A DNA stretch of 61,411 bases from Candidatus Veblenbacteria bacterium (GCA_037439965.1 JBBIVB010000002.1:1-61411), one strand, 5' to 3'. Positions 7,856 to 44,321 are shown, counted from the stretch's first letter. Program-made: numbers and translations. Notes: a model not told the origin generated them from the sequence alone.

Positions 7856-7861
7856 TTAATC

Positions 7862-8344: not shown

Positions 8345-8360
8345 GTATTCTACTTATTTT

Positions 8361-8392: not shown

Positions 8393-8452
8393 AAACTTTA
8401 AATTTATATTCTAGTATGGTATATCTAGTTTAGATTGAAATATTGATTTTAT

Positions 8453-20487: not shown

Positions 20488-21246
20488 GTGCCTATTAATC
20501 AAGAGCCAAATTATGAACCAAATTATAAATCAGAACAGCGTATTTATGCTGTCTTATTTATAGTAATGTTAGGGGCTTTGGTTTTAGGTTGGTGGCAGAT
20601 AAATAATGACATTTACCTGCCATTTAGTTGGTTAAAAAATAAACCAGTAGTCAATTCAGATAATCTTATTACCGATGAGCAGGGAATTTTGCTTACTAAA
20701 GATACTGATAATGATGGCTTGTCTGATTATGATGAATTATATCTTTATGGCACCAGTCCTTATTTACAAGATACAGATTCTGATGGCTATCCTGATAAAA
20801 CAGAAATAGAAACCTCTCACGACCCCAACTGTACCGCTAATCAAACCTGTCTTAAAGCTAAAATAAGTTTTACTGAAGGAACAAAACGCCCGCAGACCAT
20901 AGCTGAACTTAGACAGACATTAAAAGAAGCTGGAATACCAGATGAACAGTTAAATTCTATTGATGATGCTACTTTGCTTGAAGTTTTTAATGAAGTAGTG
21001 CAGGAAGTTGGAGTGACCGTACCCGTAAATGGTGAACAGCCTGTTAATACTAATACTAATTCTACTACCGAAGGTTTTGCCTCGGAGCAGGTGAATCTAA
21101 CCGAAGAACAGAAACAGTTATTAAAAAACATGTCAGGCGCGGAATTGAGAACCTTTTTAAAACAGAGTGGCGTTACTTCATCGGAATTAGATCAAATTGA
21201 CAATGATACGCTTAAAACAATCATTAATCAAACTCTAGGATTGTGA
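20488..21246 (+). CDS. membrane-anchored protein with thrombospondin type-3-like Ca-binding repeats
   Basis: One N-terminal TM segment. DTDNDGLSDYDE and DTDSDGYPDKTE are Dx[DN]xDG-type repeats. GTG start. Confidence 0.6.
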   Translation: MPINQEPNYEPNYKSEQRIYAVLFIVMLGALVLGWWQINNDIYLPFSWLKNKPVVNSDNLITDEQGILLTKDTDNDGLSDYDELYLYGTSPYLQDTDSDGYPDKTEIETSHDPNCTANQTCLKAKISFTEGTKRPQTIAELRQTLKEAGIPDEQLNSIDDATLLEVFNEVVQEVGVTVPVNGEQPVNTNTNSTTEGFASEQVNLTEEQKQLLKNMSGAELRTFLKQSGVTSSELDQIDNDTLKTIINQTLGL

Positions 21247-21326
21247 AAGTAGAATCTGTAAGCTAGAATTTAGAATACTGTTATGCTTAATTTATTTTAG
21301 CATTTAGATTTCGAAACAAGTTCGGA

Positions 21327-21355
21327 GTGACAAAATTCAAAATTATTTTTATTTT
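21327..21355 (+). promoter_or_regulatory. candidate promoter GTGACA-17-TATTTT
   Basis: GTGACA at 21327-21332 and TATTTT at 21350-21355. The same hairpin, (G/A)TGACA box and U-rich leader arrangement recurs at 38518. Confidence 0.35.
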
Positions 21356-21387
21356 TCATTTTGATTTTTACATTTTGATTTTGTAAC

Positions 21388-24300
21388 ATGTCTTGGTTTC
21401 ACCAATTACCCACCAAAACCCGCCATTGGCTAATAGCTAGTTTGCTAGTAGTATCGTTTTTAGTTTATGGGTTTGTTTTTTTTGCTCAACCTAGACCAGC
21501 TAGCGCTTTTTTGGGTTTTGGAGATATTACCTTTGATATCAATTCATTATCCCACTTCATTTGGAACAAAATTCAAAAAGCGTGGGAAGATGTCTGGAAA
21601 CATGCAGTATCAGTAGCTTATAAAAATGCCGTTCGTACTTTTACTCAGCGCATTGCTTATGATATGGCGGTTTATATATCATCAGGGGGCGCCGGGCAAA
21701 AACCGATGTTTGTTACCCAGCCTGTTGGTAAGTATTTGGAAAACGTAGCTGATGATGCAGCTGGTGATTTTTTAGACACCTTATCTAAAGAATCTGGCTA
21801 TTTAAAACAAGGTTTATGTGAGCCGGTTGATCTGCGAGCTAAACTAACTATTCAAATGCCAATGTTTAATGAGATTAAACCAAGAAAGCCTAAGTGTAGT
21901 TTATCAGATATTAAAAAGAATTTAGAAAAATCATGGGAAGAAGCTAAAGATTATTATAGTAATATCTCTTTAAGTGATTATCAGCAGTTTTTTGATTTAA
22001 CTCAAAATGATTTAGGCATTGCCTTTGAAGTATTAGGCAAAAGTGAGGAGAAAATATTAAAAGAAATTGGTGGCAAATCTTTAGAGCAACAGATGACTCA
22101 AGGTTTCAAAAATGTAGGCTCATTTATTAGTAATTATATTAAAACTCCCGGTAAAGTAATAAGCGAAACGCCAGGATCTGCTTTAGAAAGCGCTTCGAGA
22201 CAGGAAAATTTTACTGGTGATGTGATAGCTGATGCCTTGGGCGTATTTACCAATACTTTAATTTCCCGTTTACAAAAAAGAATATTTCAAAAAGGTTTAG
22301 CTCCAGTAGGTGGCGGTTCAGGTGGCGGGCCCAGTTCAATTTTTGGACCAAGTGCCACCATCGGCATAGAATATGCTATACAAGTAAACTCTAGTTTATC
22401 TACACCTAATCTAGTGATTGATACTAGCCAAATGGATATTATTAGTGAATTATTAAATTGTCCGGATATTCGTTATGCTTCGGTAAATAATTGTACTCTT
22501 GACCAAAGTTTTGCTACGGCTTTGCGTCAAGCTGAAGAAGGTCAGGCTTTAACTTTACGAGAAGCTATAGCTAAAGGCTATGTTAATGGCAATTGGAAAT
22601 TTGCCAATATTAGGCCTATGGATATTAGACGGCCAGATGCTTGGTATTTGACTGATTTAAGAAAATTGCGTAAAGCCAGAATTATTCCTGTTGGTTGGGA
22701 ATTAGCAGCAGAAAAGTTTCCTGGCAAAACTTTAAATGAGGTAATGAATGGTTTTAATGATCAAAATAGTCCTTATTGGCATTTAATTGATCCTGATTGG
22801 GTGTTACGCGCTCCACCTGCGCAATGCCGTCTTAAAGGTGCGGGACAGATTTTACAATCGCAAGGTCCCAATCGTGAAGAAACTTGTGTAGATACAGAAC
22901 AATGCGTAGCAGAAAAAGATGACGGTTCTTGCGTTGCTTGGGGTTATTGTCTAGCAGAAAAGAATACTTGGAGATTTTGGGGTGATTCTTGCGAATTACC
23001 AGTTGGTTCAGGTCGGGCACCTTATGCTACTTGTCAAACATTTAAGGATAAAAATAATAATGAGTTGAGTCTGCTTACTAATTCTTTAGCTAATTATAAT
23101 GATGATATTTGTAATGATTCCTCGGTTAGTTGCCGTTGGTATTCTTGGGCGCCACTTAATACTGATACGGTAGTAGGTCCTGATCGTTATAGTAGTGAAG
23201 AGGTTGATAAAATTTATTTAAAGAATTTGGATAAATTAAGTTGTACTACCAGTGAGCAAGGCTGCACTGCTTTTTGGCGCGCTACTAATATTAATGATGC
23301 AGAGCTAGTCGCTCGCGGCGCTACTGGTGCAGAGCCTATAGAACGATTGGTTAATTATGTTAGTACTACCGCAGGCGAACAATATATAAGTTATGCTAGC
23401 TTAAATAAAGTTTATTTACGCGAAGCGCCTCAGTATTTAAATTGTTATGATGTTGATGGTGCTGGTGATCCGATTTCAGCTAATGATTCCCCACAATGTA
23501 AAAATTACGCTTCTTTATGCTCTAGTCAGGAAGTTGGCTGTGAATTATATACGCCAGCTGATGGAAGTCCCAAAGTTCCGGCAGTAGTTCAAGCTCAAGA
23601 TTATTGTCCAGATGTTTGTGTTGGTTTTAATCGTTATACGCAAGCATCAGTTTTCTTTGAAAAAAAACCTGCTACTAATTTTGATTTTATTCCTTCCTCA
23701 GCTCAAACTTGTCCTGCTCAAAGCGCTGGCTGTGAAGAATTTACTAATTTAGATCAATCAACCGAGCAAGGTGAAAAACGGGAGTATTATGTAGAATTAA
23801 GGCAATGTATTGATATAAGCGATTCCAGAGCAGGCACCTTTTATACTTGGGTTGGTTCCGAGTTACCTGGTTTTCAATTAAAATCATGGCAACTACAAAC
23901 CGCCGATGATGGTTCACCTTATACAGTTGATGGTTTGGGTGAGTGTCGTGAGGCGCCCACTTTTCCCTTTCCTGCCAGTAATCCTGACTGTAAACAATTT
24001 TATGATATAAATGGTAATATTTATTATCGTTTTGCTTCTAAAACAGTTTCCGCTTCAGATTCATGTTATCGTTATCGTGCTACCAATATTACCCAAGATG
24101 ATTGTACTGCTACAAATGGCAGTTGGGATACTGGATTAAATGCTTGTATTTATAATGCTATTCCAGGGGAGGGTAAAGCTTGTAAGGCCAAATATAATGG
24201 TTGTCGTGAGTATCGTGGACCAACCTCGGCTGCCAGTCAATTATTATTCCCGGTTTCTACTTTTGGCGACCCTGAACCTATAACCAATTATCCTTTAGAC

Positions 24301-29553: not shown

Positions 29554-29573
29554 AATTTAGCGAGTTAGTTTTT

Positions 29574-29605
29574 AAAAAACAGGCTTCAAGAGAGGCCTGT
29601 TTTTG
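29574..29605 (+). terminator. rho-independent terminator after the giant gene
   Basis: AAAAAACAGGC - loop - GCCTGTTTTTG. Confidence 0.7.
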
Positions 29606-29661
29606 TTACTATTAATTAACGATGATTATTAGTTTTTATCTGTTATATTTATATTAATATT

Positions 29662-29690
29662 TGCAAAAAATATAATTTTGTGTTATAATT
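29662..29690 (+). promoter_or_regulatory. promoter TTGCAA-17-TATAAT with TG extension
   Basis: TTGCAA at 29662-29667 and TGTTATAAT at 29682-29690, about 100 nt upstream of 29794. Confidence 0.6.
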
Positions 29691-29793
29691 TAACTACTAT
29701 TAAACCATATTTAGTGGTAAAATTAGTTATAGATTTACATATAGATTTAAAAAGATAAAAATTTTTCAACCTAAACCTAAAAATAACCCACGC

Positions 29794-32775
29794 ATGCGCG
29801 TATCATTTAGTTTATTAGCTAAATTAAAACGGTTAATAATACCTACCAAGGCAGCTTGGCTAGGGATGATTATCTTAACCGTTGTTTTGTTGTTAATAGC
29901 TTTTCCTGTTTATGCTGGTTTAGGTCAAGCTTTAGGTAATTTTTTGTTATGGATTGCTAGATTATTTGCCAATCTAACCGTTACTCTGATTGACATTTTA
30001 TTAGCCGTAGCTAAATACAATAATTTTATTAATGCGCCAGCTATAGAAGTCGGTTGGGTGATAATGCGTGATCTGATGAATATGTTTTTTATCGTGATGT
30101 TGTTGCTTATAGCTTTCGGTACGGTTTTTAGAATAGATAATTACCACTACCGCCATCACTTAGGCAAGCTTTTAATTATGGCGGTGCTGATTAATTTTTC
30201 CAAAGCCATCACTGGTTTTATGATAGATGTTTCACAGGTAGCAATGCTAACTTTTGTTAATGGTTTTGCTCAAGCAGCTGCAGGTAATTTTGTACAAGGT
30301 TTACATTTGAATAAAATGTTTCAGTTTTCTCAAAATCCTGATAATCCAGGACAAGCTAGTGAGTGGACATTATTTACCGCTGCTTTGTTAGGTTTGATTG
30401 TTGTGATTATGACAACAGTGGTGGTGGGTATATTTGTGATAGTATTTATTGTACGTATTGTAGCTTTATGGTTTTTAATTATTATTTCTCCCCTAGCTTA
30501 TATCTTGAATATTTTCCCAGGCAGAAGCCAGGAATACGCTTCAATGTGGTGGAATTATTTTATAAAGTATGCTTCAGCTGGTCCGATTTTAGCTTTCTTT
30601 TTATGGTTGTCGCTTTCAGTGATGCAGATGACGCAGGGTAATACTTCTACCAATTTATTAAATAATGGAAATATAACCAATAGTGAAGGTGGGTTTGGTT
30701 TATCTAAGATTGTTTCGTCTTCAATAACAGAAATTGGTTCTTCACCAGTACTACTCTCTTTTATTATCAATATAATTTTATTAATCGGCGCACTATGGAT
30801 GACCCAGAAACTCGGTGTCGCCGGCGGCCAACTCGCTGGCGCGGCTATAGCGAAGATGCAAAGATTAGGGATGGGTGTTATTAAAACACCATTTAAGGGG
30901 GTGTGGAAGGCTACTAAAGCAGCGGCTAGTAGAGCTAATGAGAAAATAGTGAATGCTACTGGCGGCAGATTGAGTCTTGATTATAGAGATTATGTAAAAT
31001 CATATAAAAAAGTTAGAGCAGAACGTCGGCGCGAAAGATATAGAGGATTTGAGGGTCAGACGAAAAAATATTTTAGAGAATTTGGAGTCAGTCCAACTGG
31101 CATTGCTAAATTTGTATTAGGAGCGATCCCTCGTCATCGGATTCAAAAGCAACAAGAGCAAGATAGTAAAAGAATGGTTGAATTAACTGAAAAATTAGAA
31201 AGACCAAACAAAGCTGCTGAAAAACGTAAACAGTTACAGGAAGAAGAGAATCAACTCACGGGGCAAATGAGTAGTTTAGAAAAAGAACGTGAGGCGCTAC
31301 AATTAGATTCGCAACTTAATCCAAAAAATGTGGCTGCTAATACTAATCGTATAAATGAAATTAATAGTAAAATAAACGATACGCAAAATAAATTAGCAAG
31401 GAATAATGTTCTTCAGGGGATGACAGACCAAGAGCTGGAACAGCAGGTTAATATTGAATTGAAGGCAGATATTCGTAAATTAATGAAAGAAATACAAGAT
31501 TTAAATCCAGTAGTAAATTTGATACCATTATTAGACTACGATAAGATAATAGATTTTCACAAAAAACAACTTAGTAAAACCGATGCCGATTTAGTTAAAC
31601 AAGATACAGATCTTAATAAAGAAAAGGCCACTTTACAAAATAAATTACTGCTTACTAAAGATAAATATGAGGCTAATAAAATAAAGGAGCAAATAGATAA
31701 AATAAATCAACAATTAACAGAAGTTAAAACTAAACATATAAGTATTCTACAAGAGAAAGATGCGCTTAATGGAATAACGGAGCCAGTTGCTCGTGAACAG
31801 AAAGCACGTGAATTACAGAGTATATATGAAAGCAAACAAAAGAATTTAGTTGAACAACAAGCAGTTTTAAGTGAACGTTTTAATACTGCCGATCTTACTC
31901 AATCAGAACGTGAAATGATACTTAATGAAGTCAACAAACTTAAGAAAATTATAAAAGAAAGAAAAGAAGCTTGGTATCAACCGAAAGAATCAGGGGAATA
32001 TTATATAGAAAGAGAAAGAAGAAGATCGGTGGCTGAAGAAAAACAAAAGATAACCTCAAAGAATGCGGAAGAATTAATTGCCGACCACGAGGCGGCGATT
32101 AAGGCAAAGAATGAATATCAAGCTATGGCTTATGCAGAAAAATTAGCAGAAGATGGTAATTTAAATACATTAATAAATCATTATGGTAGAACAGGAGTAT
32201 TATCTAAAACTAAAGGTAAGAGCAATTTTGAGGGACTTAATGAATACAGAGAAAAAGTTTTACAAGGTCAATTGGGTTTAGATGAACAAACAGCTTATAG
32301 ATACCAAAATGATTTATCTTATATTGCTGAAGCGCTTGGGCAGTGGGCTTTGGCTCGCAGTGTTGGATTTAATGTTGATAATCGTAAATTCTATAAGTTA
32401 TCTGAAAAAGAACATACTGCGTCGGCTTTGACTGAAATATTAAAAATGGACCCGCAACGTATAAGTTCTTCCCTTACTCGTTTGGCTTATGGTGGAGAAG
32501 TGGTACAGCCAGACGGTACACTAAAATTTGACATAGATGCTTTAGGTAAGGCCATTGCTATAGCTACCGCTAATGCTGTACAAAACCACATGAATCGTTT
32601 TCAGATTAGTACCGCCACCAACTTAATACAACCGCATGTATTGGATCAATTAAAACTGTTGGTAGCTCAAGGTAAAATATCACAAGAATATATTAACGGT
32701 TTATTAAGACGTGTTTGGTCAGCTCAAGAGAAAACAGTTGCACAAATTATTAATTATTTACGCGGTAGTATATAA
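29794..32775 (+). CDS. TrbL/VirB6-like polytopic membrane protein with a long coiled-coil C-terminal domain
   Basis: The N-terminal ~350 aa has about 7 TM segments in a VirB6-like arrangement. The C-terminal ~600 aa is K/E/Q-rich with heptad character. Confidence 0.6.
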   Translation: MRVSFSLLAKLKRLIIPTKAAWLGMIILTVVLLLIAFPVYAGLGQALGNFLLWIARLFANLTVTLIDILLAVAKYNNFINAPAIEVGWVIMRDLMNMFFIVMLLLIAFGTVFRIDNYHYRHHLGKLLIMAVLINFSKAITGFMIDVSQVAMLTFVNGFAQAAAGNFVQGLHLNKMFQFSQNPDNPGQASEWTLFTAALLGLIVVIMTTVVVGIFVIVFIVRIVALWFLIIISPLAYILNIFPGRSQEYASMWWNYFIKYASAGPILAFFLWLSLSVMQMTQGNTSTNLLNNGNITNSEGGFGLSKIVSSSITEIGSSPVLLSFIINIILLIGALWMTQKLGVAGGQLAGAAIAKMQRLGMGVIKTPFKGVWKATKAAASRANEKIVNATGGRLSLDYRDYVKSYKKVRAERRRERYRGFEGQTKKYFREFGVSPTGIAKFVLGAIPRHRIQKQQEQDSKRMVELTEKLERPNKAAEKRKQLQEEENQLTGQMSSLEKEREALQLDSQLNPKNVAANTNRINEINSKINDTQNKLARNNVLQGMTDQELEQQVNIELKADIRKLMKEIQDLNPVVNLIPLLDYDKIIDFHKKQLSKTDADLVKQDTDLNKEKATLQNKLLLTKDKYEANKIKEQIDKINQQLTEVKTKHISILQEKDALNGITEPVAREQKARELQSIYESKQKNLVEQQAVLSERFNTADLTQSEREMILNEVNKLKKIIKERKEAWYQPKESGEYYIERERRRSVAEEKQKITSKNAEELIADHEAAIKAKNEYQAMAYAEKLAEDGNLNTLINHYGRTGVLSKTKGKSNFEGLNEYREKVLQGQLGLDEQTAYRYQNDLSYIAEALGQWALARSVGFNVDNRKFYKLSEKEHTASALTEILKMDPQRISSSLTRLAYGGEVVQPDGTLKFDIDALGKAIAIATANAVQNHMNRFQISTATNLIQPHVLDQLKLLVAQGKISQEYINGLLRRVWSAQEKTVAQIINYLRGSI

Positions 32776-32793
32776 ACTAGAGAAGATGTTTAT

Positions 32794-34596: not shown

Positions 34597-34605
34597 ATTT
34601 CTATT

Positions 34606-35082
34606 ATGCGGCAATTTGTAGTTCCACAATTTATAGATGTTGAGGATAAGATAATCGGCCCCATTACCACTAGACAATTTTTAATTATCTTAGCCGGTGG
34701 TTTGTCGCTATTTATCGAGTTTAAGCTATGCGATTTAATGTTATTTATTATTTTAGGAATTTTAACTATTGTTTTTACCTTAGCTTTTAGTTTCTTGAAA
34801 GTTAATAGTATGCCTTTGCATTTTTTTATAATAAATATTATCCAGACTTTTAAACGGCCAAAATTACGCGTTTGGGATAAAACACTTAACCCTAAGGAAA
34901 TTAAAGAGCTGCTTAATAAACAACAAGAGGAAGTAGTTGCTGTTACACCTCAAATTAAACCGCACGTAACCTTAACCCATTCACGCTTGCAGGAGTTATC
35001 TTTAATTGTAGATACCGGAGGAGCATATAAATCAGACAACGGGGAGTTAGAGGTAAAAGATACCAATGATAGAAAAATTTAG
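34606..35082 (+). CDS. PrgI-family (VirB3-like) small membrane protein
   Basis: The N-terminus MRQFVVPQFIDVEDKIIGPITTRQFLIILAGG is followed by two TM helices. This pattern is characteristic of PrgI family proteins encoded next to VirB4. Confidence 0.65.
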   Translation: MRQFVVPQFIDVEDKIIGPITTRQFLIILAGGLSLFIEFKLCDLMLFIILGILTIVFTLAFSFLKVNSMPLHFFIINIIQTFKRPKLRVWDKTLNPKEIKELLNKQQEEVVAVTPQIKPHVTLTHSRLQELSLIVDTGGAYKSDNGELEVKDTNDRKI

Positions 35083-35275
35083 TGTTATACTTAATTTGTA
35101 CTGATAATTCAAAATTAAAAAATCAAAATGCAAAATGACAAATTAGAATGGAAAAATCTTTATGTCACGATGAGGCAAGGCCGGAGCAGTCTAGATTACT
35201 TTGTTGGCACTTGCAATGAAAAGAAAAATATAAAAGACAATTTTGATTTTTGATATTTAATTTTAAATTTTTAAG

Positions 35276-35959
35276 ATGCCTTCTAAAAATAAATTAGCTA
35301 AAGCAAAAAAAGGACCACCCACTCAAACTTATTTAGATATAGTTGCTATTAAAGAGGATTGTGTGATGATGCGTGACAGTACACTGCGAGCAGTGGTTTT
35401 GTGTTCCTCGATTAATTTTGCTTTAAAAAGTGAGGAAGAGCAAAATGCCTTAATTCAAGCTTATGCCCAGTTTCTTAATTCCTTAGATTGGCCTTTACAG
35501 ATAGTTATTCAGTCACGTAAACTTAATATTGATAAATATGTGGAAGAGTTGCAGAATTTATCTAAACAGCAACCTAATGAATTATTGCGAGTATTAACTG
35601 ATGAATATTTATCTTATATCAAAGAGCTGGTTAGTTTAGGAGAAATTATGACTAAGCGTTTTTATATAGTGATTCCTTATAGTCATCTTTCTGATAAACG
35701 GCGTGGATTTTGGTTTAGATTAAAAAGCATTTTTAGCCTTGGCGAATATATACAATTATCTCGGGAAAACTTTGCTAAAAACAAAGAAGCTTTAGATAGG
35801 AGAGTAGATTTTGTGATATCAGGATTGGCTTCTATGAGTATTAAGGGCATACGTTTAGACACACAAGGATTGATTGAGCTTTATTATAATTCTTATAATC
35901 CAGAACTAGTAGAAACTCAGCCATTAAAAGAATTTGATAAATTACAGCTGGAAAGTTAA
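35276..35959 (+). CDS. hypothetical protein resembling the N-terminal domain of VirB4-type ATPases
   Basis: YLDIVAIKEDCVMMRDSTLRAVVLCSSINFALKSEEEQNALIQAYAQFLNSL parallels the N-terminus of the downstream VirB4 (IKVRDLISPSSFRVEPNRVELNGIMVRTIFVLSYP). No P-loop is present. Confidence 0.4.
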   Translation: MPSKNKLAKAKKGPPTQTYLDIVAIKEDCVMMRDSTLRAVVLCSSINFALKSEEEQNALIQAYAQFLNSLDWPLQIVIQSRKLNIDKYVEELQNLSKQQPNELLRVLTDEYLSYIKELVSLGEIMTKRFYIVIPYSHLSDKRRGFWFRLKSIFSLGEYIQLSRENFAKNKEALDRRVDFVISGLASMSIKGIRLDTQGLIELYYNSYNPELVETQPLKEFDKLQLES

Positions 35960-36002
35960 AATTATGTTTAATGTTTTATTTTAAATTTTAAATTCTTAAT
36001 CC

Positions 36003-37880
36003 GTGGCTTTATTTGCTAAAAAAGTTAAAAGAGAATTAAAAGCGTCTGCAGCCCCTGTTAAGGCAGAGTCTGAATTGGTGGGTAGAGAGTTGGTGGAAGC
36101 AGAACGAGTTTTGCGCGAAGGAGTAATTAAGGTTCGCGATTTAATCAGCCCTTCTTCTTTTAGGGTAGAACCTAACCGAGTAGAGCTTAATGGTATAATG
36201 GTGCGCACTATTTTTGTATTAAGCTATCCACGCTATATTTCAGTTGGTTGGTTTTCACCAATTATTAATATGAATGTAACGCTGGATGTAGGGATGTATT
36301 TTTATCAAGTGCGGCCAGAAATAATTTTAAAACAGTTACGCAATAAAGTGGGAGCGCTAGAAGCACAAATTATTGCCGATCACGAAAAAGGAGCGCCCCG
36401 TGACCCTATTACCGAAACGGCTTTAAAGGATATTGAACAGTTAAGAGATGATTTGACCCAAGGTATTGAAAAGTTTTTTCAATTTGGTTTGTATGTGACA
36501 GTTTATGCCAAAGATTTAAAAGAGTTAGATAAAGTTTCTGAACAAGTGGAAGCTGCCTTTGGCTCCAAGTTGGTGTATTCGCGTCGGGCCTTGTGGCAAG
36601 TAGAGCAGGGCTTTAATTCCACCCTACCATTAGCCAATGATGAATTGCAGATTTACTTTAATATGAATACTTCACCGATTGCTTCTTCATTTCCTTTTAT
36701 GTCTTCCGAATTAACTTCTGATAATGGGATTTTGTATGGTATCAATCGTCACAATAACAGTTTGATTTTATTTGATAGATTTTCTTTACAGAATGCTAAT
36801 GCTGTTGTTTTTGCAACATCAGGTGCTGGTAAATCTTATGCAGTTAAATTAGAAGTTCTGCGTTCTATGATGATGGGTACCGATGTTATAATTATTGATC
36901 CGGAAATGGAATACAAACATTTAACTGAGGCTGCTGGTGGTGCTTATATAAATATTTCTTTAAATTCCCAATCACATATCAATCCTTTTGATTTACCAAG
37001 ACCAGTGGGTGAAGTATTGGCTGGTGATATTATTCGTTCAGCGGTGATTACTTTAAAAGGTTTAATTCGTTTAATGTTGGGAACTTTAACTCATGAGGAA
37101 GATTCCATCATTGATCGTGCCTTACTTGAAACTTATGCCAAAAAAGATATCACTAGTCAAAGCGATTTGTCGCGCGTAGAGCCGCCGCAAATGTCCGATT
37201 TAGAAGAAGTGTTGTCTGGTATGGTAGGCGTTGAAAATTTACTTATTCGTTTACAGAAATTTACTAAAGGAACCTTTGCTGGTTTATTAAACAATCCTAC
37301 TAATATTGATGTTAAAAATCAGTTAGTAGTTTTTTCAGTACGTGATTTGGAAGATGAGTTGCGGCCTATGGCTATTTATACCATTGTTAATTACATTTGG
37401 AATGTAGTGCGGTCAGAAATGAGAAAGAGAATTATGGTAATTGACGAAGCTTGGTGGTTAATGCAAAATGAAGATAGTGCTAAATTTATTTTTGCTTTAG
37501 TTAAACGTTGCCGTAAATACTATTTAGGTGTAACTACCATCACTCAAGATGTAAATGATTTTTTAACTTCACCTTATGGTCAAGCTATAGTTACTAATTC
37601 TTCTTTACAATTATTACTTAAGCAATCTCCAGCTGGTATTGATAAAATAGCAAAAACTTTCTTATTAACTGAGGGTGAAAAGTATTTGCTTTTAGAGTGT
37701 GGCATAGGCGAAGGAATTTTCTTTGCTGGCTCTAAACACGCGGCTATTAAGATAGTGGCTTCTTATACCGAGGATCAGTTAATTACTTCTGACCCGAGGC
37801 AATTATTAGAGATTGAGCATGCCAAAAAAGAGTTTGAAGAAAGTTTAGCTCAAGAACAAAAGTTGGAAGCCAAAACTTAG
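36003..37880 (+). CDS. virB4: VirB4/TrbE/CagE-family T4SS ATPase
   Basis: Walker A FATSGAGKSYAVK, Walker B RIMVIDEAWWLM, and TTITQD downstream. GTG start. Confidence 0.8.
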   Translation: MALFAKKVKRELKASAAPVKAESELVGRELVEAERVLREGVIKVRDLISPSSFRVEPNRVELNGIMVRTIFVLSYPRYISVGWFSPIINMNVTLDVGMYFYQVRPEIILKQLRNKVGALEAQIIADHEKGAPRDPITETALKDIEQLRDDLTQGIEKFFQFGLYVTVYAKDLKELDKVSEQVEAAFGSKLVYSRRALWQVEQGFNSTLPLANDELQIYFNMNTSPIASSFPFMSSELTSDNGILYGINRHNNSLILFDRFSLQNANAVVFATSGAGKSYAVKLEVLRSMMMGTDVIIIDPEMEYKHLTEAAGGAYINISLNSQSHINPFDLPRPVGEVLAGDIIRSAVITLKGLIRLMLGTLTHEEDSIIDRALLETYAKKDITSQSDLSRVEPPQMSDLEEVLSGMVGVENLLIRLQKFTKGTFAGLLNNPTNIDVKNQLVVFSVRDLEDELRPMAIYTIVNYIWNVVRSEMRKRIMVIDEAWWLMQNEDSAKFIFALVKRCRKYYLGVTTITQDVNDFLTSPYGQAIVTNSSLQLLLKQSPAGIDKIAKTFLLTEGEKYLLLECGIGEGIFFAGSKHAAIKIVASYTEDQLITSDPRQLLEIEHAKKEFEESLAQEQKLEAKT

Positions 37881-37902
37881 AATCTAGAATATTTATTTTC
37901 TT

Positions 37903-38451
37903 ATGCCCAAATGGCAAAAATTATTAGGAGGAGCGTTATTGATAGCTGTTTTATTAACCGTTGCTTGGTTTTTAATTAATAAATATATATTAGTGGAAGA
38001 AAATACTAATATCAATATTAATCAGATAACTCAACCTGTAGATAATACCAATAATCAAACAGAGATCCCCATTACTATTAATAAAGAGGAGGCGGCTTTA
38101 CGCGCTTTAAGTTTGTTTTTTGCCAGCCGTTTTGGCAGTTATTCTACCACTTCTCAATTTTCTAATTTGCGGGAAATTGATTATTTATTAACCCAAAGGA
38201 TGCGCACTTGGGCACAAAATTATATTAATACTAGTCTAACTCCCCCTGGTTATTATTCAGTTATAACCAAGGGAATCAGTGCTAATATAAAATCTTTTAC
38301 TGGTAGCCAAGCCCAGATTTTAGTTGGTACCCAACGGCAAGAGATGTTTTCTGTAGGTGGTGAAATGCAATTTCGCTATCAAAACTTACTTTTAAAATTT
38401 ATTAAAGAAGGAGAGGAATGGAAAGTAGATGGCGCGGAGTGGCAGAAATAA
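37903..38451 (+). CDS. bitopic membrane protein, VirB8-like (NTF2-fold-sized) candidate
   Basis: One N-terminal TM segment followed by a ~120-aa domain ending KFIKEGEEWKVDGAEWQK. The assignment rests on topology and position only. Confidence 0.3.
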   Translation: MPKWQKLLGGALLIAVLLTVAWFLINKYILVEENTNININQITQPVDNTNNQTEIPITINKEEAALRALSLFFASRFGSYSTTSQFSNLREIDYLLTQRMRTWAQNYINTSLTPPGYYSVITKGISANIKSFTGSQAQILVGTQRQEMFSVGGEMQFRYQNLLLKFIKEGEEWKVDGAEWQK

Positions 38452-38517
38452 ATTTAAAATAACCTGTAATGCTGAATTTATTTCAGTATCTAAAATAGAT
38501 CCCGAAATGAGTTTGGG

Positions 38518-38546
38518 ATGACAAATACACAAAATAATTTTAATTT
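38518..38546 (+). promoter_or_regulatory. candidate promoter ATGACA-17-TAATTT
   Basis: ATGACA at 38518-38523 and TAATTT at 38541-38546, preceded by the hairpin ATCCC-GAAATGAGTTT-GGGAT. The module is paralogous to 21300-21387. Confidence 0.35.
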
Positions 38547-38571
38547 TTGATATTTAATTTAAATTTTTAAG

Positions 38572-38958
38572 ATGTCTGATTTAGATGAACAATTATACGA
38601 TGAGGAGTCGCAGAGACAAGCAGAGATTGAATTAGAAGCTGAGCGTCGCCAGGAAATGCAAGAACAACAAGCACAAGAGCAGCAGGCGCAAGCTAATCAA
38701 TCTGGGGTAGCTGGTTTGATAGGGCGAGCGGCAACCCAAGGCAAGGAGATGGTCAAACAAGAGGTGAAAAGAAGAATTAAGCGCCAAATTTTATTATGGA
38801 TCCTCTCTTTGTTGTCAAATCCCTACACCTGGTTGGCCATTGGTTTGATTTTTGTAGCGTTTTTATTAGAGTGGTGTAAAGATAATAAATTAGAATGCTT
38901 AAACCTTTTAGGTTCAGCCTTTTGGGATATAGTAAAATTCATATTTGGTTTAGATTAA
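38572..38958 (+). CDS. hypothetical protein (acidic/Q-rich N-terminus, C-terminal TM segments)
   Basis: 128-aa ORF within the operon. No motif recognised. Confidence 0.5.
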   Translation: MSDLDEQLYDEESQRQAEIELEAERRQEMQEQQAQEQQAQANQSGVAGLIGRAATQGKEMVKQEVKRRIKRQILLWILSLLSNPYTWLAIGLIFVAFLLEWCKDNKLECLNLLGSAFWDIVKFIFGLD

Positions 38959-38962
38959 TCTA

Positions 38963-40141
38963 ATGAGGAAGATAATTTATATAAAATTACTATTAGTTTG
39001 CTCTTTGGCTGTTTTTTATATTAGTTTGCCATTTATAGCTCAAGCCCAGCCAGCAGTCTTAAATCCTTGTTGGACTGAGAGTGAATGCGAATCGGCTGGA
39101 GGTTTATGGGGTAAAAGTACTGAAAAATATCCTGACGAAACGAGTGGTATCAGTGGTTTTGAATTAGATGATGGTAAAAGCAACTCTTGCCAAGATATTG
39201 ATAACCAAGACACAGCCAAATGTTATGCTAAGCCGCCTACTATTAAATTACAGGTGCCAATTCCGGGATTATCTCAAGAGTTTACCGGTGGCCTAGCGGT
39301 TTATATTTCCTATTTTTATAAATTTTTTATTTCAGCTATTGCCGTGATGGCTGTAGTAATGGTGATGTGGGGCGGTTTTAAACGGCTTTATGCCGCCGGT
39401 AGCCCAGATAAGATTAAAGATGCCAACGATACCATTGTTAGTGCCATCAGCAGTTTAGTTATTGCTTTATTATCTTATACCTTACTTAACTTAGTTAATC
39501 CAAAATTAGTTGATATTCCCGGACTTGCTATTGAAATGCCTAAAAGGCAAGGTTTTGGTGAATGGTGTGGGGATGATATTGAAAAGGCAAATCCTGCTAT
39601 GAGATGTGGGGATATTTATAAAGATCCAAACACTGGATATAAATGTAGAATTAGTACCTGTATGGATACGGGTACTGGTTGTTTTCCTGATCCAGACAAA
39701 CCAAAGACTAATAATTTTCTTTCTTACTCTTGTCAAGAAAATCATGTTGCTTGTAAAAAGGTTACTGATGAGAATGTTAAGCAATATCATGGTAACGCTA
39801 GCGAAGAGCATGATGTTTATGAATCAGCTTGTAATTCTTTCAGTAAAGATGAGGATATGTGTACTTGGGTTGAATATTATGGCCCAATGAGCAATGATGA
39901 TAAGTGTGAATGGTATTCAAAGGATTTCCGGGATCAATTTTGTAAAGGTAAGACAAAATGTGATGATTTTAATATATTTTTATGGGGTAATGGAATTCTC
40001 CCGACATTTGGGCCTAGTGGAACAGAATTTGCGGCGTGTCATAAAGATTGGTGTAATTTTGGTTGTAAGGTTTTTTGGATGGATCGTCAGGTTCCTTCGG
40101 TTCCAATTACTGTTATGGAATATTGGTATTGTTATGAGTAA
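38963..40141 (+). CDS. pilin-module protein fused to a cysteine-rich C-terminal domain
   Basis: Signal peptide, Cys-rich N-terminal segment, the module FYKFFISAIAVMAVVMVMWGGFKRLYAAGSPDKIKDANDTIVSAISSLVIALLSYTLLNLVNPKL, then about 200 aa with more than 20 Cys. Confidence 0.65.
   Translation: MRKIIYIKLLLVCSLAVFYISLPFIAQAQPAVLNPCWTESECESAGGLWGKSTEKYPDETSGISGFELDDGKSNSCQDIDNQDTAKCYAKPPTIKLQVPIPGLSQEFTGGLAVYISYFYKFFISAIAVMAVVMVMWGGFKRLYAAGSPDKIKDANDTIVSAISSLVIALLSYTLLNLVNPKLVDIPGLAIEMPKRQGFGEWCGDDIEKANPAMRCGDIYKDPNTGYKCRISTCMDTGTGCFPDPDKPKTNNFLSYSCQENHVACKKVTDENVKQYHGNASEEHDVYESACNSFSKDEDMCTWVEYYGPMSNDDKCEWYSKDFRDQFCKGKTKCDDFNIFLWGNGILPTFGPSGTEFAACHKDWCNFGCKVFWMDRQVPSVPITVMEYWYCYE
39312..39501 (+). 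repeat. 190-bp near-identical segment shared with 42041..42230
   Basis: Manual alignment finds 2 mismatches in 190 bp. It encodes the pilin-like two-helix module. The flanking coding sequence is unrelated. Confidence 0.85.
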
Positions 40142-40169
40142 TTGGTATTGTTATAATTATTAATGTGAT

Positions 40170-41435
40170 ATGTTAGAAAATCTAGATAAAAGAAAAATAT
40201 TTATTATACTCGCTATGGTGTTGATGGCGGTACTGATTATTGTCTTTTTGTATTTTATTTGGCGAGAGCCAAAAGTGCCAGTTACGCCTCAAGGTAATCA
40301 AAATGTGCCACCAGGACAACTGCCATCGGTAGGGCCGGGTAATGTAAATGTTGGTGGTCCGCCTTTGAACGCTAATTTACCGCCGGTTACCACTATTCCT
40401 AGTCAACCAACCGGTCCTGTTGCTAACCAGGTGTCGCCCGTAGCCACCGGTGGTTTAACCGCCAGTCCTCAAGTAGTTCCAGGTTCTGCTCAATTTCCGC
40501 TGGTTACTTCCAGCGGTACCCGATATTATAATCCTAGTGACGGTAAATTTTATCAATTATCTCCTTCAGGACCAGTGGCTTTAAATGAGATTCCTTATCC
40601 TGATGTACAAAATATAACCTGGTCGCAGAGAGGCCAAAGGGCGGTTTTAGAATTTCCTGATGGTGCTAATATTGTTTATGATTTTGATAGTAAAAAACAA
40701 TTTACTTTGCCAAAAGAGATGACCGAATTTTCTTTTTCGCCTAATGCTAATGAAATAGCTGGTAAGTTTTTAGGTGAACAGGAATCGGATAAATGGTTAG
40801 TGACTGTTAATAGCACTGGCTCTAATTTAAAGGGTATTGAACCTTTGGGTGACAATGCGGATAAAGTGGAAGTTAATTGGTCACCTCAAGGGCAGGTGGT
40901 AGCGTTGTCGCGTACTGGTGAACCTTTAAGTGGTTTGAATGAAGAAGTATTGTTAATTGGTTTACAAGGTGAAAATTTTAAGTCATTAGAAGTAGAAGGC
41001 AGGGGTTTTGCGTCACAATGGACACCTTCAGGCAATCAGTTACTGTATAGTATTTATAGTGAAAGAAATAATTTTAAACCAGAATTATGGGTAGTTGATG
41101 GTTCGGTAGATCAAATTGGTTACAATAAAAAATATCTTAGTTTACCTACTTGGGTTGATAAATGTACTATTACTGCCGATTCTAATACTGCTTATTGTGC
41201 AGTGCCACAAAATTTACCAGATGGTTCTGGTTATTTACGAGAATTAGCCAAAGGTTTGCCAGATTATTTTTATCGGGTTGATTTACAAAGCGGTACTAGT
41301 ACGCTAATTGCTGCTCCAGTGGCTGATAATAATTATGTTAGCGCAAGTAACCTAACTTTATCTAACGATGGTAGGATATTATATTTTATAGATGAGTTGT
41401 CCGGCACTTTACGCAGCTTGCAGTTGATGCCGTAA
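40170..41435 (+). CDS. membrane-anchored protein with Pro-rich linker and TolB-like beta-propeller repeats
   Basis: N-terminal TM segment, a P/Q/V-rich spacer, then repeated SP.G....F..-type blades (WSPQGQVVALS, WTPSGNQLLYS, LSNDGRILYF). Confidence 0.5.
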   Translation: MLENLDKRKIFIILAMVLMAVLIIVFLYFIWREPKVPVTPQGNQNVPPGQLPSVGPGNVNVGGPPLNANLPPVTTIPSQPTGPVANQVSPVATGGLTASPQVVPGSAQFPLVTSSGTRYYNPSDGKFYQLSPSGPVALNEIPYPDVQNITWSQRGQRAVLEFPDGANIVYDFDSKKQFTLPKEMTEFSFSPNANEIAGKFLGEQESDKWLVTVNSTGSNLKGIEPLGDNADKVEVNWSPQGQVVALSRTGEPLSGLNEEVLLIGLQGENFKSLEVEGRGFASQWTPSGNQLLYSIYSERNNFKPELWVVDGSVDQIGYNKKYLSLPTWVDKCTITADSNTAYCAVPQNLPDGSGYLRELAKGLPDYFYRVDLQSGTSTLIAAPVADNNYVSASNLTLSNDGRILYFIDELSGTLRSLQLMP

Positions 41436-41470
41436 GTTAAAATTTATAAGTTAGAATTTGTAATATTGTT

Positions 41471-41506
41471 ATATTTTGTGTTAGCTATATATTTTGTGTT
41501 AGCTAT
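41471..41506 (+). repeat. perfect 18-bp tandem direct repeat x2 (ATATTTTGTGTTAGCTAT)
   Basis: Read directly: unit 1 is 41471-41488 and unit 2 is 41489-41506. Confidence 0.85.
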
Positions 41507-41530
41507 AGTATTAAGATTAACAGGGAATTT

Positions 41531-41575
41531 AAGTAGATATTTTTAGACGATCGTCTAAAAATATCTACTTTTTGA
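41531..41575 (+). terminator. 40-bp perfect palindrome followed by a T-run (intrinsic terminator)
   Basis: AAGTAGATATTTTTAGACGA pairs with TCGTCTAAAAATATCTACTT, followed by TTTTG. Confidence 0.7.
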
Positions 41576-41631
41576 TTGGCACTTTTAATATCCTTTTTAA
41601 AATCAGTAGTTTTTGTTAAACTAAAGTTGTT

Positions 41632-42873
41632 ATGCGGTTAAGATATAATTTAAAATATAACTATTTTATCTGGCTAGTAATTATTTGGTTGGTGGCCGGT
41701 TTGTTTTTCCCCTTAACAGTTTTTGCCGATTGTATACCTGAAAATCAAGTAACCTCTCTCCCAGGAAGTACTACTTGTGCCGATATTCTTTGTTGCCCTG
41801 GATTAGATTGTGAACCATTTGTGAAAGAATCAAATTATAAAAGTGCCGAGGTACAAACCTCAATTACCACCCATTATGCTCGTTGTATTAAATCAGATAA
41901 TTCGCAAGGTAGTTATGAAGAAGAAGCCAAGCAGTCGTATGAAGTGAAATTTGTTCCGCAAATAACCATTCCTGGCAGTACTTTTACTAAAGGTCAGCCC
42001 ATTACCATTACAGGTGATACTTTAGCCCAGTATTTAGCTGATTTTTATAAATTTTTTATTTCAGCTATTGCCGTGATGGCTGTAGTAATGGTGATGTGGG
42101 GCGGTTTTAAACGGCTTTATGCCGCCGGTAGCCCAGATAAGATTAAAGATGCCAACGATACCATTGTTAATGCCATCAGCGGTTTAGTTATTGCTTTATT
42201 ATCTTATACCTTACTTAACTTAGTTAATCCTAAGTTGACCGAGTTTAAAACTTTAGAAATTTATACTGTGGGTAGAGAAGAATTCAGTTTGAATCCAGAG
42301 TGGAATCCAGAGTTACAATTAGCAGCCCAATCCGATCCCACTTCTTCTCTTTTTAATATAAAAACAATTGAACCCAATTTAGCTGTTGGTAATAATGTTA
42401 TTCCTAAGTTAAGAACCGAAGCAGCGTTAAATTTACATAAAGCCATGGAAATTTTAAGAAGCAAAGGTTATGGCGCAGTTTTGACTGAAGCCTATCGTAG
42501 TCCAGAAGAACAAAAAAGATTAATTAAAGAAAATTGCCAAAATCCACCAGGCAGCAAAACCTGCAATCCCAAGCCAGGTAAATCACCAACTTGTGTAATG
42601 AAAAACGGCCTCTATAGTTGCCCGCATTCTACTGGTTATGCTGTAGATATATGGGCGACCAAGAATTATGAATTGTGCATTGTACCACCAAAAAATAATA
42701 GCCTGACCTATTTTTGTTATAGCAAAGGTAAACCCGAGTGTTTACAAAATGAATGTCAGGCAGCTTTGATTGCTGCCATGAAAAAAGCTGGTTTTTGTAA
42801 TTTATGTTCTGAACCTTGGCATTTTGAGTACATTGGTGGTGATTATAAAGGTTCGCCGGGATGCACGTGTTAA
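41632..42873 (+). CDS. pilin-module protein fused to an M15 (VanY/LAS-type) peptidoglycan peptidase domain
   Basis: It carries the same two-helix module as 38963. The C-terminal domain has SCPHSTGYAVDIW (H-x6-D zinc site) and CSEPWHFEY, as in D-Ala-D-Ala carboxypeptidase / VanY-like M15 enzymes. Confidence 0.7.
   Translation: MRLRYNLKYNYFIWLVIIWLVAGLFFPLTVFADCIPENQVTSLPGSTTCADILCCPGLDCEPFVKESNYKSAEVQTSITTHYARCIKSDNSQGSYEEEAKQSYEVKFVPQITIPGSTFTKGQPITITGDTLAQYLADFYKFFISAIAVMAVVMVMWGGFKRLYAAGSPDKIKDANDTIVNAISGLVIALLSYTLLNLVNPKLTEFKTLEIYTVGREEFSLNPEWNPELQLAAQSDPTSSLFNIKTIEPNLAVGNNVIPKLRTEAALNLHKAMEILRSKGYGAVLTEAYRSPEEQKRLIKENCQNPPGSKTCNPKPGKSPTCVMKNGLYSCPHSTGYAVDIWATKNYELCIVPPKNNSLTYFCYSKGKPECLQNECQAALIAAMKKAGFCNLCSEPWHFEYIGGDYKGSPGCTC
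42041..42230 (+). repeat. 190-bp near-identical segment shared with 39312..39501
   Basis: See the partner repeat at 39312..39501. Confidence 0.85.
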
Positions 42874-42983: not shown

Positions 42984-44321
42984 ATGGCTAAAGATAAAAC
43001 AATTTACACTTGTTCTACTTGTGATGCACAGTATCCTAAATGGCAGGGTAAGTGTTCTACTTGTGGCAAGTGGGGGACAATAAGTGAAACCCCAATTTTT
43101 TTATTTTCTGCCAAAGATTTACTCCAAGTATCATCAGTTAAGTTAGATTCAAAGCAAAATTATTTTAAACGCGAATCAACTACTATTAAAGAGTTGGATA
43201 GGGTTTTGGGTGGCGGTTTGGTAAATGGTTCTGTGGTATTGTTAGCGGGTGATCCAGGGGTAGGCAAATCCACTTTAGTATTACAACTGGCCGCCAATTT
43301 TCCCGATAAGATTTTGTATGTTTCTGGTGAAGAATCAGCAGAACAAGTAAGCGGTCGTTTGCGTCGCCTGAATTTACATCCAGAGAATTTGTCGTTTCTT
43401 AATGACCAAAGACTAGAGGCGATAATAAGCGCGGTTGAAAAAGATAAGCCCGGTTTGCTGATAGTTGATTCCTTGCAGACTATCTTAGCTTCTGATATTA
43501 ATGGCGCACCGGGGAATACCAATCAAATCAAAACGGTTACTGCTAAATTAGTAGAGTTGGCTAAGACCCGTAATCTAACAACCCTACTTATTGGACACGT
43601 TACCAAGGGGGGTTTGTTGGCTGGCCCAAAAACACTTGAGCATCTAGTAGATGTGGTATTGAGTTTTGAGAGCGAATCTTCATCAAACTTGCGTTTTTTA
43701 CGTACCAGTAAAAATCGTTTTGGACCCACTGATGAGGTTGGTATTTTTCAAATGGTAGAAAGCGGTTTGATTGAAGTTATTAATCTAGCTGCTGTTTTTT
43801 TAGCCAATCGTCATCAAGGACCAGGAGCTTGTTTAAGCAGCTTAACCCAGGGTTCGCGCAGTTTTTTTATAGAAGTCCAGGCCTTGGTGGCTTATAGTCG
43901 TTATGGTCAAGCTAGACGCACCGCCTCTGGCTTTGATTATAACCGTTTGCAATTATTGTTGGCGGTATTATCTGAAAAAGTCGGTATTAAATTATCATAT
44001 AGTGATGTTTATATTAATTTAGTGGGTGGTTTTAAATGTCGGGAACCTGGTTTGGATTTAGCTGTGTGTTTAGCATTAGCCTCGGCTTATAAAAAAAGAG
44101 CAGTGCCGCAAGATGTAGTGGTAGTAGGCGAGGTTGGTTTGGGTGGAGAAGTTAGGGGAGTGGGCAATTTAAATAAAGTTTTAGCTGAAGCGTCAGCTTG
44201 GGGTTTAAAACAGGTTATAACTTCTGGTTTGGATAATAAATTAAAATTACCCGCAGGGCTGAAGGTGATCAGCATAAAAAATGTAGCCGAAGTTATTAGG
44301 TGGTTAGACAATCAACTATGA
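42984..44321 (+). CDS. radA: DNA repair protein RadA/Sms
   Basis: Zinc ribbon CSTCDAQYPKWQGKCSTCGKWG, Walker A GDPGVGKST, KNRFG, and a Lon-like C-terminus. Confidence 0.9.
   Translation: MAKDKTIYTCSTCDAQYPKWQGKCSTCGKWGTISETPIFLFSAKDLLQVSSVKLDSKQNYFKRESTTIKELDRVLGGGLVNGSVVLLAGDPGVGKSTLVLQLAANFPDKILYVSGEESAEQVSGRLRRLNLHPENLSFLNDQRLEAIISAVEKDKPGLLIVDSLQTILASDINGAPGNTNQIKTVTAKLVELAKTRNLTTLLIGHVTKGGLLAGPKTLEHLVDVVLSFESESSSNLRFLRTSKNRFGPTDEVGIFQMVESGLIEVINLAAVFLANRHQGPGACLSSLTQGSRSFFIEVQALVAYSRYGQARRTASGFDYNRLQLLLAVLSEKVGIKLSYSDVYINLVGGFKCREPGLDLAVCLALASAYKKRAVPQDVVVVGEVGLGGEVRGVGNLNKVLAEASAWGLKQVITSGLDNKLKLPAGLKVISIKNVAEVIRWLDNQL

Follow-up and report, generated by a model that had tools for sequence, protein, structure and literature searches.

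Positions 20488-42873 of a 61,411-nucleotide contig from Candidatus Veblenbacteria bacterium (GCA_037439965.1 JBBIVB010000002.1:1-61411; this whole stretch is called the window below) carry a block of genes resembling a type IV secretion system (T4SS), in which an earlier note, made from the sequence alone, had seen neither a coupling protein nor a relaxase. This raises the question of what such a machine is, and what it might be used for. The earlier note had read the block as a T4SS-like machine that is encoded on the chromosome of a bacterium with a reduced genome and does not serve conjugation, a reading that fits both the present results and the published work on the T4SSs of Patescibacteria. 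The locus is very probably a chromosomal, vertically inherited T4SS of the ABY1 lineage of the Patescibacteria (the candidate phyla radiation, CPR), derived from conjugation systems of mating-pair-formation class FATA (MPF-FATA) and decoupled from DNA mobilisation. The novelty that the earlier note implied did not hold up: this relaxase-less, pilus-encoding type of T4SS is already in the literature of 2023-2025 (PMC10633639, PMC12102498, PMC12857230), and the window is a further ABY1 example and not a new system.

The block contains 12 open reading frames (ORFs) of at least 100 amino acids (aa), all on the plus strand and lettered here A to L in their order, and 95.5% of it is coding. The earlier note had given the same coordinates and strand; its count of thirteen ORFs did not stand, as 12 were found and its own list held 12. 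The conserved core is made up of six of these genes and radA, which follows the block:

29794..32775, plus strand: C, polytopic membrane protein, a candidate "extended VirB6"-like protein, 993 aa
32794..34596, plus strand: D, orphan soluble (cytoplasmic) all-α protein, 600 aa, between the VirB6-like and PrgI genes
34606..35082, plus strand: E, PrgI/VirB3-like small membrane protein with PF12666 and two transmembrane (TM) segments
35276..35959, plus strand: F, TrsD/TraC-like protein, 227 aa, homologue of the VirB4 N-terminal domain (split VirB4)
36003..37880, plus strand: G, VirB4 ATPase of the MPF-FATA (CD1110) type, with NF045971 and Walker motifs
37903..38451, plus strand: H, VirB8-like bitopic protein of 182 aa, with a TM helix, a linker and an NTF2-like domain
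42984..44321, plus strand: radA, recombination helicase with Pfam AAA_25, Zn-ribbon and Lon_C

The ATPase G scores 343.6 bits against the NF045971 conju_CD1110 model, whose curated cut-off is 325, as against 51.7 for CedB and 32.7 for DUF87; it also matches P-loop_TraG (E-value 6e-29), and shows a Walker A motif, SGAGKSY, at residue 274 and a Walker B motif, MVIDEAW, at residue 477. Going by profile scores and best matches, on which the classification was based in place of a formal phylogeny, G is a VirB4 and does not side with HerA/FtsK, the affiliation that the earlier note had named as the one that would overturn its reading. A scan for VirB4 with one genome per species confirmed 592 relatives, of which the 80 best (72-85% identity) are used for all locus counts given here. 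These 80 are all from metagenome-assembled genomes (MAGs) of Patescibacteria, the nearest groups being Falkowbacteria, Kerfeldbacteria, Komeilibacteria and Magasanikbacteria, which belong to ABY1, together with records labelled "Patescibacteria group". Many of the closest records are titled "uncultured Gammaproteobacteria bacterium" though their T4SS loci are patescibacterial, and the taxonomy of these MAGs is probably mislabelled. Outside the CPR the closest VirB4s are encoded on plasmids of Bacillota and Actinomycetota, with 28-35% identity.

The small proteins beside VirB4 point in the same direction. F matches the TrsD model NF041427 (E-value 5.9e-7) and VirB4_plasma (residues 99-233, E-value 5.7e-11), and aligns to the N-terminal 100-130 residues of VirB4 models. 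In a tblastn search, the N-terminus (residues 34-148) of the VirB4 encoded by the Brevibacillus plasmid NZ_CP144923.1, a canonical Firmicute MPF-FATA system, matches 35300-35644, which lies within F; homologues of F bear the TraC-like domain PF26593, and F is detected in all 80 related loci, adjoining virB4. E scores 30.8 bits against PrgI (PF12666; cut-off 27, E-value 4.2e-7) and is detected in 78 of the 80.

H was characterized mainly through its predicted structure. The families of D and H were gathered with one concatenated alignment of the conserved domains of both proteins, and the AlphaFold2 (AF2) model of H, built from 43 homologues (pLDDT, the predicted local distance difference test score, 86), comprises an N-terminal TM helix, a disordered linker and an α+β domain. 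A Foldseek search of the PDB with this model retrieves as its top matches CagV/VirB8, TcpC, TrwG/VirB8 of R388, VirB8 of Rickettsia and Bartonella, TraH of pIP501, PrgL of pCF10 and VirB8 of A. tumefaciens; the VirB8-type matches have E-values of 1.7e-5 to 1e-3, with other NTF2-like folds interspersed among them. Independently of the model, VirB8 is the commonest Pfam family among the homologues of H, being matched below threshold by 12 of the 43 (best E-value 2.6e-5). As the modelled fold and the family matches of the relatives thus agree, H can be assigned as a VirB8-like subunit; it is detected in 71 of the 80 related loci.

C possesses about six TM segments in residues 1-340, followed by a tail of about 600 aa. 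Its N-terminal domain (1-340) has invariant positions across 38 homologues (R92, D93, N96, N134, D145 and Q148), and the tail matches solely coiled-coil proteins such as SMC and dynactin. A Lys/Arg-rich stretch past the last TM segment suggests that this coiled-coil tail is probably cytoplasmic. The top Pfam family of the C homologues is TrbL/VirB6 (PF04610), matched below threshold by 4 of 38 members (best E-value 4.3e-4), and in an hhalign comparison a 38-column motif aligns with the TrbL-like protein of a Pontibacillus megaplasmid discussed below (E-value 0.015). A tblastn search of plasmids with the TM domain of C gave no match, and an hmmsearch of two Firmicute T4SS loci with the family profile found nothing among their ORFs; the topology of C and the place of its gene are consistent with VirB6.

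For these genes the reading made from the sequence alone was largely borne out. It had recognized E as PrgI/VirB3-like, F as resembling the N-terminal domain of VirB4, and G as a VirB4 ATPase with both Walker motifs at the places where they are indeed found, and it had described H as bitopic and VirB8-sized, which the model and the Pfam matches extend to VirB8-like. Of its VirB6/TrbL-like protein with a coiled-coil tail of about 600 aa, the polytopic topology and the tail stand, with VirB6 homology weakly backed; of its 600-aa Pro-rich soluble protein (D), the solubility stands, whereas the overall Pro content is 5.3% and the Pro-rich part is the linker at about 425-495 alone.

D lacks TM segments and has no profile match in Pfam, NCBIfam or PDB; when D and 33 relatives were compared with Pfam, NCBIfam and PHROGs, nothing consistent emerged. 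Its AF2 model shows two confident helical domains (323-418 and 497-597), for which Foldseek returned no match at an E-value of 0.001 or below (best E-value 1.1). D is found in 76 of the 80 related loci, lying between the VirB6-like and PrgI genes, and an exhaustive profile search places 2,719 clusters at 50% identity in its family, 2,044 of them with an E-value of 1e-30 or lower. D represents a large orphan family tied to this type of T4SS.

The comparison of synteny that the earlier note had proposed shows a conserved gene neighborhood: when the window proteins were placed by tblastn on the 80 related loci, covering about 10 kb on either side of virB4, the core order recurred as VirB6-like gene (C), D, PrgI (E), TrsD (F), VirB4 (G), H and radA. 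The median identity to the window across the 80 loci is 75% for VirB4, 53% for TrsD, 46% for PrgI and 44% for radA, so that the ATPase is under more constraint than the housekeeping recombination protein encoded in the same neighborhood. This high identity of VirB4 indicates strong constraint and vertical inheritance. The block is flanked by sua5/rsmA on one side and by radA, a methylpurine glycosylase gene and recG on the other; rsmA and radA, which the earlier note had named as housekeeping neighbors, were both confirmed.

A competing explanation is that the locus is a conjugative element, or the remnant of an integrative and conjugative element (ICE), whose relaxase, type IV coupling protein (T4CP) and integrase have decayed or are encoded beyond the window. 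Elsewhere its VirB4 family is characteristic of Firmicute conjugative plasmids and ICEs, and the window evidence spans a single 61-kb contig and not the remaining genome. Among the ORFs scanned in this contig, a coupling protein, relaxase, VirB11 and integrase are all lacking, in agreement with the earlier note, which had reported no VirD4/TraG, VirB11, relaxase or integrase. With the Brevibacillus plasmid NZ_CP144923.1 as the control set for absences, its VirD4-like T4CP (CD1115-family), relaxase and MobC find no tblastn match in the window or in the 80 loci (and hence none within 10 kb of virB4 in these relatives; the origin of transfer, oriT, was not searched for), while the VirB4 of the same set matches the window and all 80 loci (81/81), providing a positive control. 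No direct repeats were found bordering the locus, and none of the att or direct-repeat boundaries, relaxase or coupling protein by which the earlier note would have recognized an ICE turned up in the contig. The tRNA genes at 3273 and 47795 are away from the borders of the locus, and the GC content ranges from 0.33 to 0.39 across the window with no break at the locus. The same chromosomal neighbors recur across many species, with very high VirB4 identity, and the published survey of Patescibacteria counted 109 relaxases in all, only 15 of them near virB4 (PMC12102498). Given this lack of mobile-element hallmarks in the 61-kb contig and the recurrence of the neighbors, the ICE reading is largely refuted, and we regard it as very improbable.

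The identification as a chromosomal T4SS of ABY1 Patescibacteria can be sharpened by comparison with known systems. Wang et al. 2023 found by transposon sequencing (Tn-seq) that an "apparent T4SS" is essential for the epibiotic growth of Southlakia epibionticum; this system is nearest to Gram-positive conjugative systems, includes essential pilins and has no recognisable coupling or relaxase proteins (PMC10633639). Quinonero-Coronel et al. 2025 described a monophyletic VirB4 clade of Patescibacteria, sister to MPF-FATA, with TrsD, PrgI, VirB6 and VirB2 arrays near virB4 and T4CP homologues mostly far from it; KsgA (= RsmA) is common near virB4, linkage to comF, recG and radA was noted in ABY1, and VirB8 homologues are rare and almost confined to ABY1 (PMC12102498). 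Reviews list this T4SS as a recent but established addition to the T4SS superfamily and give its role as unknown (PMC12857230, PMC11665869). The window locus is this Patescibacteria-clade T4SS, including its rsmA/ksgA-radA-recG context. Like the S. epibionticum cluster (SEML1_0006-0019), it is chromosomal, belongs to a monoderm, and combines VirB4, TrsD, PrgI/VirB3 and a VirB6-like protein with VirB2-like pilins (including arrays) and wall-hydrolase genes by virB4, in the absence of a relaxase or T4CP nearby; the rsmA/ksgA, radA and recG neighborhood is shared with the T4SSs of ABY1. In contrast to S. epibionticum, in which no VirB8-like component was found structurally, the window clearly encodes one; its hydrolase is fused to a pilin module; its pilin array lies 11 kb away and not in the cluster; and the orphan D, a propeller and a giant Cys-rich protein are added in what is an ABY1-type locus of an uncultured organism. 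The contributions of the present work are small additions to this picture, namely the VirB8 assignment, the orphan family D, the modular pilin-hydrolase fusions and a six-gene pilin array.

With the MPF-FATA T4SSs of Firmicutes (CD1110 of C. difficile CTn2, Prg of pCF10, Trs of pGO1, and the Brevibacillus plasmid, which was the one examined here) the window shares the VirB4 family, a PrgI gene immediately before VirB4, a TrsD-like protein, a VirB8-like bitopic protein and a wall hydrolase downstream. These reference systems possess a relaxase, MobC and a VirD4-like T4CP and have no VirB2-type pilins, whereas the window locus shows the reverse. A similar arrangement is seen on the megaplasmid of Pontibacillus sp. 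ALD_SL1 (NZ_CP062975.1, 351-361 kb), which has the top bit score (368 bits) among the plasmid VirB4 matches listed. Its gene order resembles that of the window, with two T4SS_pilin genes, a 779-aa TrbL-like protein, a PrgI/TraL-like protein, a 274-aa protein, a VirB4 of the CD1110 family and a large peptidoglycan hydrolase; it has no relaxase annotated within 12 kb, and the record is typed as non-mobilizable. It differs in lying beside flagellar genes on a Bacillota megaplasmid, in the 34% identity of its VirB4, and in an M23/NlpC-P60 hydrolase that is not fused to a pilin; homologues of B, D, H or K were not seen there, no search aimed at them having been made. The T4SS_pilin genes of Pontibacillus imply that, among monoderm T4SSs, pilins of the VirB2 type also occur outside Patescibacteria and the ICEs of mycoplasmas.

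Two DNA-importing systems are of interest as more remote analogies. The ComB system of H. pylori is a chromosomal DNA-uptake T4SS with homologues of VirB2, VirB3, VirB4, VirB6 and VirB8 that works without a coupling protein, VirB11 or relaxase. The window locus is likewise chromosomal and has an inner-membrane subset of VirB proteins with no T4CP, VirB11 or relaxase within the 61-kb contig; ComB differs in belonging to a diderm, in possessing VirB7, VirB9 and VirB10, outer-membrane components that have no place in a monoderm, and in its MPF-T ancestry, and the sequence relationship seen between it and the window is that of the generic VirB4 family. The archaeal Ced system (CedA/CedB) imports DNA into a single-membrane cell by means of a VirB4/HerA-like ATPase and works with pili. 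The window locus is not a member of this group, with scores of 51.7 bits for CedB (cut-off 700) and 19.9 for CedD (cut-off 600).

Around the conserved core the window encodes further secreted or membrane-anchored proteins, and a pilin array:

20488..21246, plus strand: A, N-terminally anchored protein with a thrombospondin-type-3 (TSP3, Ca-binding) repeat, 252 aa
21388..29553, plus strand: B, giant Cys-rich protein, secreted or anchored, 2721 aa, with one CBM_4_9 domain
29575..29604, plus strand: terminator-like hairpin with a 13-bp stem and a T run, between B and C
38572..38958, plus strand: I, small protein, its N-terminus rich in Glu/Gln, with a single TM segment
38963..40141, plus strand: J, VirB2-like pilin module between Cys-rich N- and C-domains, preceded by a signal peptide
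40170..41435, plus strand: K, N-terminally anchored β-propeller with a TM segment (10-28) and a Pro-rich linker
41632..42873, plus strand: L, fusion of a VirB2-like pilin module with a peptidoglycan peptidase of the M15/VanY type
5808..9271, plus strand, outside 20488-42873: six VirB2-like pilin genes (158, 332, 123, 123, 141 and 130 aa)

The domain architectures of A, B and I to L agree with what had been read from the sequence. A, previously taken as a Ca-binding-repeat anchor protein, scores 29.2 bits against the bacterial TSP3 family PF18884 (cut-off 25, E-value 8e-7) and has one N-terminal TM segment (19-37); the best sigma-70-like promoter match of the region (20437-20465) lies before it. 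B, recognized earlier as a 2721-aa Cys-rich protein, contains 98 Cys (3.6%), one N-terminal hydrophobic segment and a CBM_4_9 domain at residues 1307-1425; BLAST detected no internal repeats, and PDB and PHROG searches gave no match. Its recurrent motif, C-x6-(G)C-x2-[FY], is common to J. The small TM protein I has the expected single TM segment and is poorly conserved, being detected in 4 of the 80 related loci. K, called TolB-like in the earlier note, matches designed β-propellers ("Cake", E-value 4.5e-7) with a weak match to PD40, is detected in 28 of the 80 loci and is followed by an 18-bp hairpin at 41531-41570. From this hairpin and the one before C, two operons are predicted, C-K and L-radA. 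The earlier calls of a pilin-module/Cys-rich fusion (J) and a pilin-module/M15 peptidase fusion (L) were likewise confirmed: J has PF18895 (T4SS_pilin) at residues 110-178 and 21 Cys, and L matches PF18895 (E-value 1e-8), VanY (3e-7) and Peptidase_M15 (4e-6), with the metal/catalytic motifs H-x6-D and E-x-x-H in place, suggesting a putative function analogous to that of VirB1 for its peptidase.

In these fusions the pilin module is the constant part, and the domain attached to it differs between loci. The module is kept in 34 related loci, with the M15 domain detectable in 4 and the J-type Cys-rich domain in 7. The pilin modules of J and L (39312-39507 and 42041-42236) have a DNA identity of 98% over 196 nucleotides, the remaining parts of the two genes being unrelated, which suggests recent gene conversion or module shuffling. 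In a 1.09-Mb contig of a relative (ENA ERZ1286166 contig_2308, 17940-19778) a pilin module is fused to an SLT lytic transglycosylase directly before radA; the presence of SLT in place of M15 implies that the hydrolase domain on the pilin module is interchangeable. In the same contig a DsbA/thioredoxin gene precedes the fusion, placing a disulfide-forming enzyme beside Cys-rich secreted proteins. All six genes of the array 11 kb upstream of the locus match PF18895, and its two 123-aa genes are tandem copies of each other (7458-7757 and 7947-8246, 100% identical); pilin gene arrays have been described for Patescibacteria T4SSs (PMC12102498). The two duplicated genes have strong Shine-Dalgarno sequences, unlike most genes of the window. 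The array sits in a polysaccharide-synthesis neighborhood. Farther along, on the minus strand (11074-14023), adjacent ORFs of 446 and 527 aa with no Pfam match lie between a glycosyltransferase gene and yebC/ruvC.

The phyletic pattern of B distinguishes it from the core. Of 37 informative loci, about 11 have a giant homologue of B ahead of C, and all of these genomes also possess the J-K-L module; in the closest relative, whose D is 77% identical, B is missing at that position. A giant Cys-rich protein at the head of the locus, as the earlier note had described it, is thus no conserved feature. B is probably a surface or host-contact protein, and both B and the pilin-fusion/propeller module are lineage-variable accessories. 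B also bears on the idea that the machine exports effectors or other proteins into or onto a host bacterium, with the giant Cys-rich protein or other secreted proteins as cargo or tip adhesin. Such export has precedents in the Ptl system of Bordetella and the VirB system of Brucella, which do without a coupling protein (PMC12102498, PMC12857230), it was deemed possible by Wang et al. (PMC10633639), and large secreted Cys-rich proteins are indeed encoded beside the core in a subset of the genomes. B itself, however, would take the Sec pathway by virtue of a signal or anchor sequence of its own, it is not conserved together with the core, and no protein with a recognisable toxin or enzyme domain was found that could be a candidate effector. 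Protein export seems to us a rather unlikely account of what the machine does.

Several points weigh against the identification of the whole locus as an ABY1 T4SS decoupled from DNA mobilisation. The giant B is split from the T4SS core by the terminator-like hairpin, downstream of which lies a promoter-like site (29660-29689), as well as being missing there in the closest relative. The evidence for assigning C to VirB6 is weak, consisting of the similarities listed above. Patescibacteria genomes commonly carry VirD4-like genes at other places (PMC12102498) and the window is a single 61-kb contig, so that a coupling protein may be encoded at a distance. Finally, pilus formation and the nature of the cargo are what we infer for ABY1 organisms.

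The intergenic regions of the block drew attention to a further feature. AT-rich leaders with a 7-nucleotide period (core ATTTTGATTTTTGATATTTAATTT) occur at 21328-21376, 35223-35271, 38520-38568 and 42930-42978, just before the genes for B, TrsD, I and radA, with an inverted copy at 42883-42906. In the 80 related loci such heptad arrays stand before the genes for PrgI, TrsD, VirB4, H and K and are built of species-specific units such as TTAGGAT, TTAGAAA and AGCTAAA; 88 arrays were observed against about 2 expected, with a roughly 5-fold enrichment at lag 7. The possibility that they represent a locus-specific regulatory element was rejected, as arrays of the AGCT type are common in unrelated high-GC metagenome contigs that have no T4SS genes. 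They look like generic heptanucleotide intergenic repeats, though they are concentrated in the T4SS block of the window.

What, then, might such a T4SS do? VirB4 is known to dock on VirB3, VirB6 and VirB8 and to drive pilin extraction and pilus growth. By analogy, VirB4 and TrsD would dock on the PrgI, VirB6-like and VirB8-like proteins in the single membrane, and VirB4 would power the extraction of pilins and their polymerisation into a VirB2-type tube reaching a host cell. Opening the cell wall may fall to the pilin-M15 fusion and perhaps to the anchored propeller as well; A, with its TSP3 repeat, and the giant Cys-rich B, with its carbohydrate-binding module, would serve as lineage-specific surface or host-contact factors. 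As neither a coupling protein nor a relaxase is encoded nearby, the machine is unlikely to be a conjugative exporter of the classical kind. It most likely serves host-dependent growth, either by the import of host macromolecules or by the export of effectors; the preference of the earlier note for host contact or uptake over conjugation is thus supported by the gene content and the literature, as far as a proposed function can be.

One form that import could take is the uptake of nucleic acids, with host or environmental DNA or RNA passing via the pilus and channel to RadA, RecG and repair enzymes, and D and the coiled-coil tail of the VirB6-like protein standing in for the coupling protein. 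This is a functional hypothesis within the identification as an ABY1 T4SS, and not a competing identity. Part of its support comes from gene neighborhoods: radA adjoins the T4SS genes in 53 of the 80 loci, most of the others being incomplete, and lies directly past H in 29, past the inserted J-K-L module in 16 and, together with the pilin fusion, in an inverted block in 5, so that it stays joined to the pilin-fusion gene even when the block is inverted. The genes for RecG and methylpurine glycosylase adjoin as well, matching the linkage of comF, recG and radA reported for ABY1 (PMC12102498). An uptake role with the precedent of ComB has been proposed for Saccharibacteria (PMC11665869), the acquisition of host RNA and tubular structures have been described in a Microgenomatia isolate (2026 preprint, bioRxiv 10.64898/2026.06.21.733656), and neither a T4CP nor a relaxase was found nearby. 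However, a compact genome may simply have inherited the order that places radA and rsmA beside the locus, none of the proteins of the locus showed a DNA-binding or nuclease domain, and CedB is matched at 51.7 bits, far short of its cut-off of 700. S. epibionticum requires its T4SS but not competence (comEC), which shows only that the two are separable. The linkage with radA and recG slightly favors a nucleic-acid role in ABY1, but inherited synteny could account for it just as well; on balance nucleic-acid import is a tentative proposal that we would not hold to be likely. A more elaborate version, in which the ABY1 T4SS swapped its coupling protein for D and the coiled-coil tail of C and became a reversed pilus, importing host nucleic acid in transcriptional coupling to RadA, with the pilin fusions (M15, SLT or Cys-rich) forming a wall-piercing tip, appears distinctly improbable.

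The Patescibacteria T4SS has proved essential in the single species examined for this, and its role is a recognized gap that has been called "completely unknown" (PMC11665869). The window locus leaves that picture unchanged. What it supplies, as a chromosomal T4SS of ABY1, is a well-resolved parts list that includes a VirB8-like component mostly missed by sequence surveys, the very large uncharacterized cytoplasmic family D, pilin modules fused to interchangeable wall or Cys-rich domains, and an unusually tight link to radA. These parts are concrete starting points for modelling their structures and, in relatives that can be cultivated, for genetic work.

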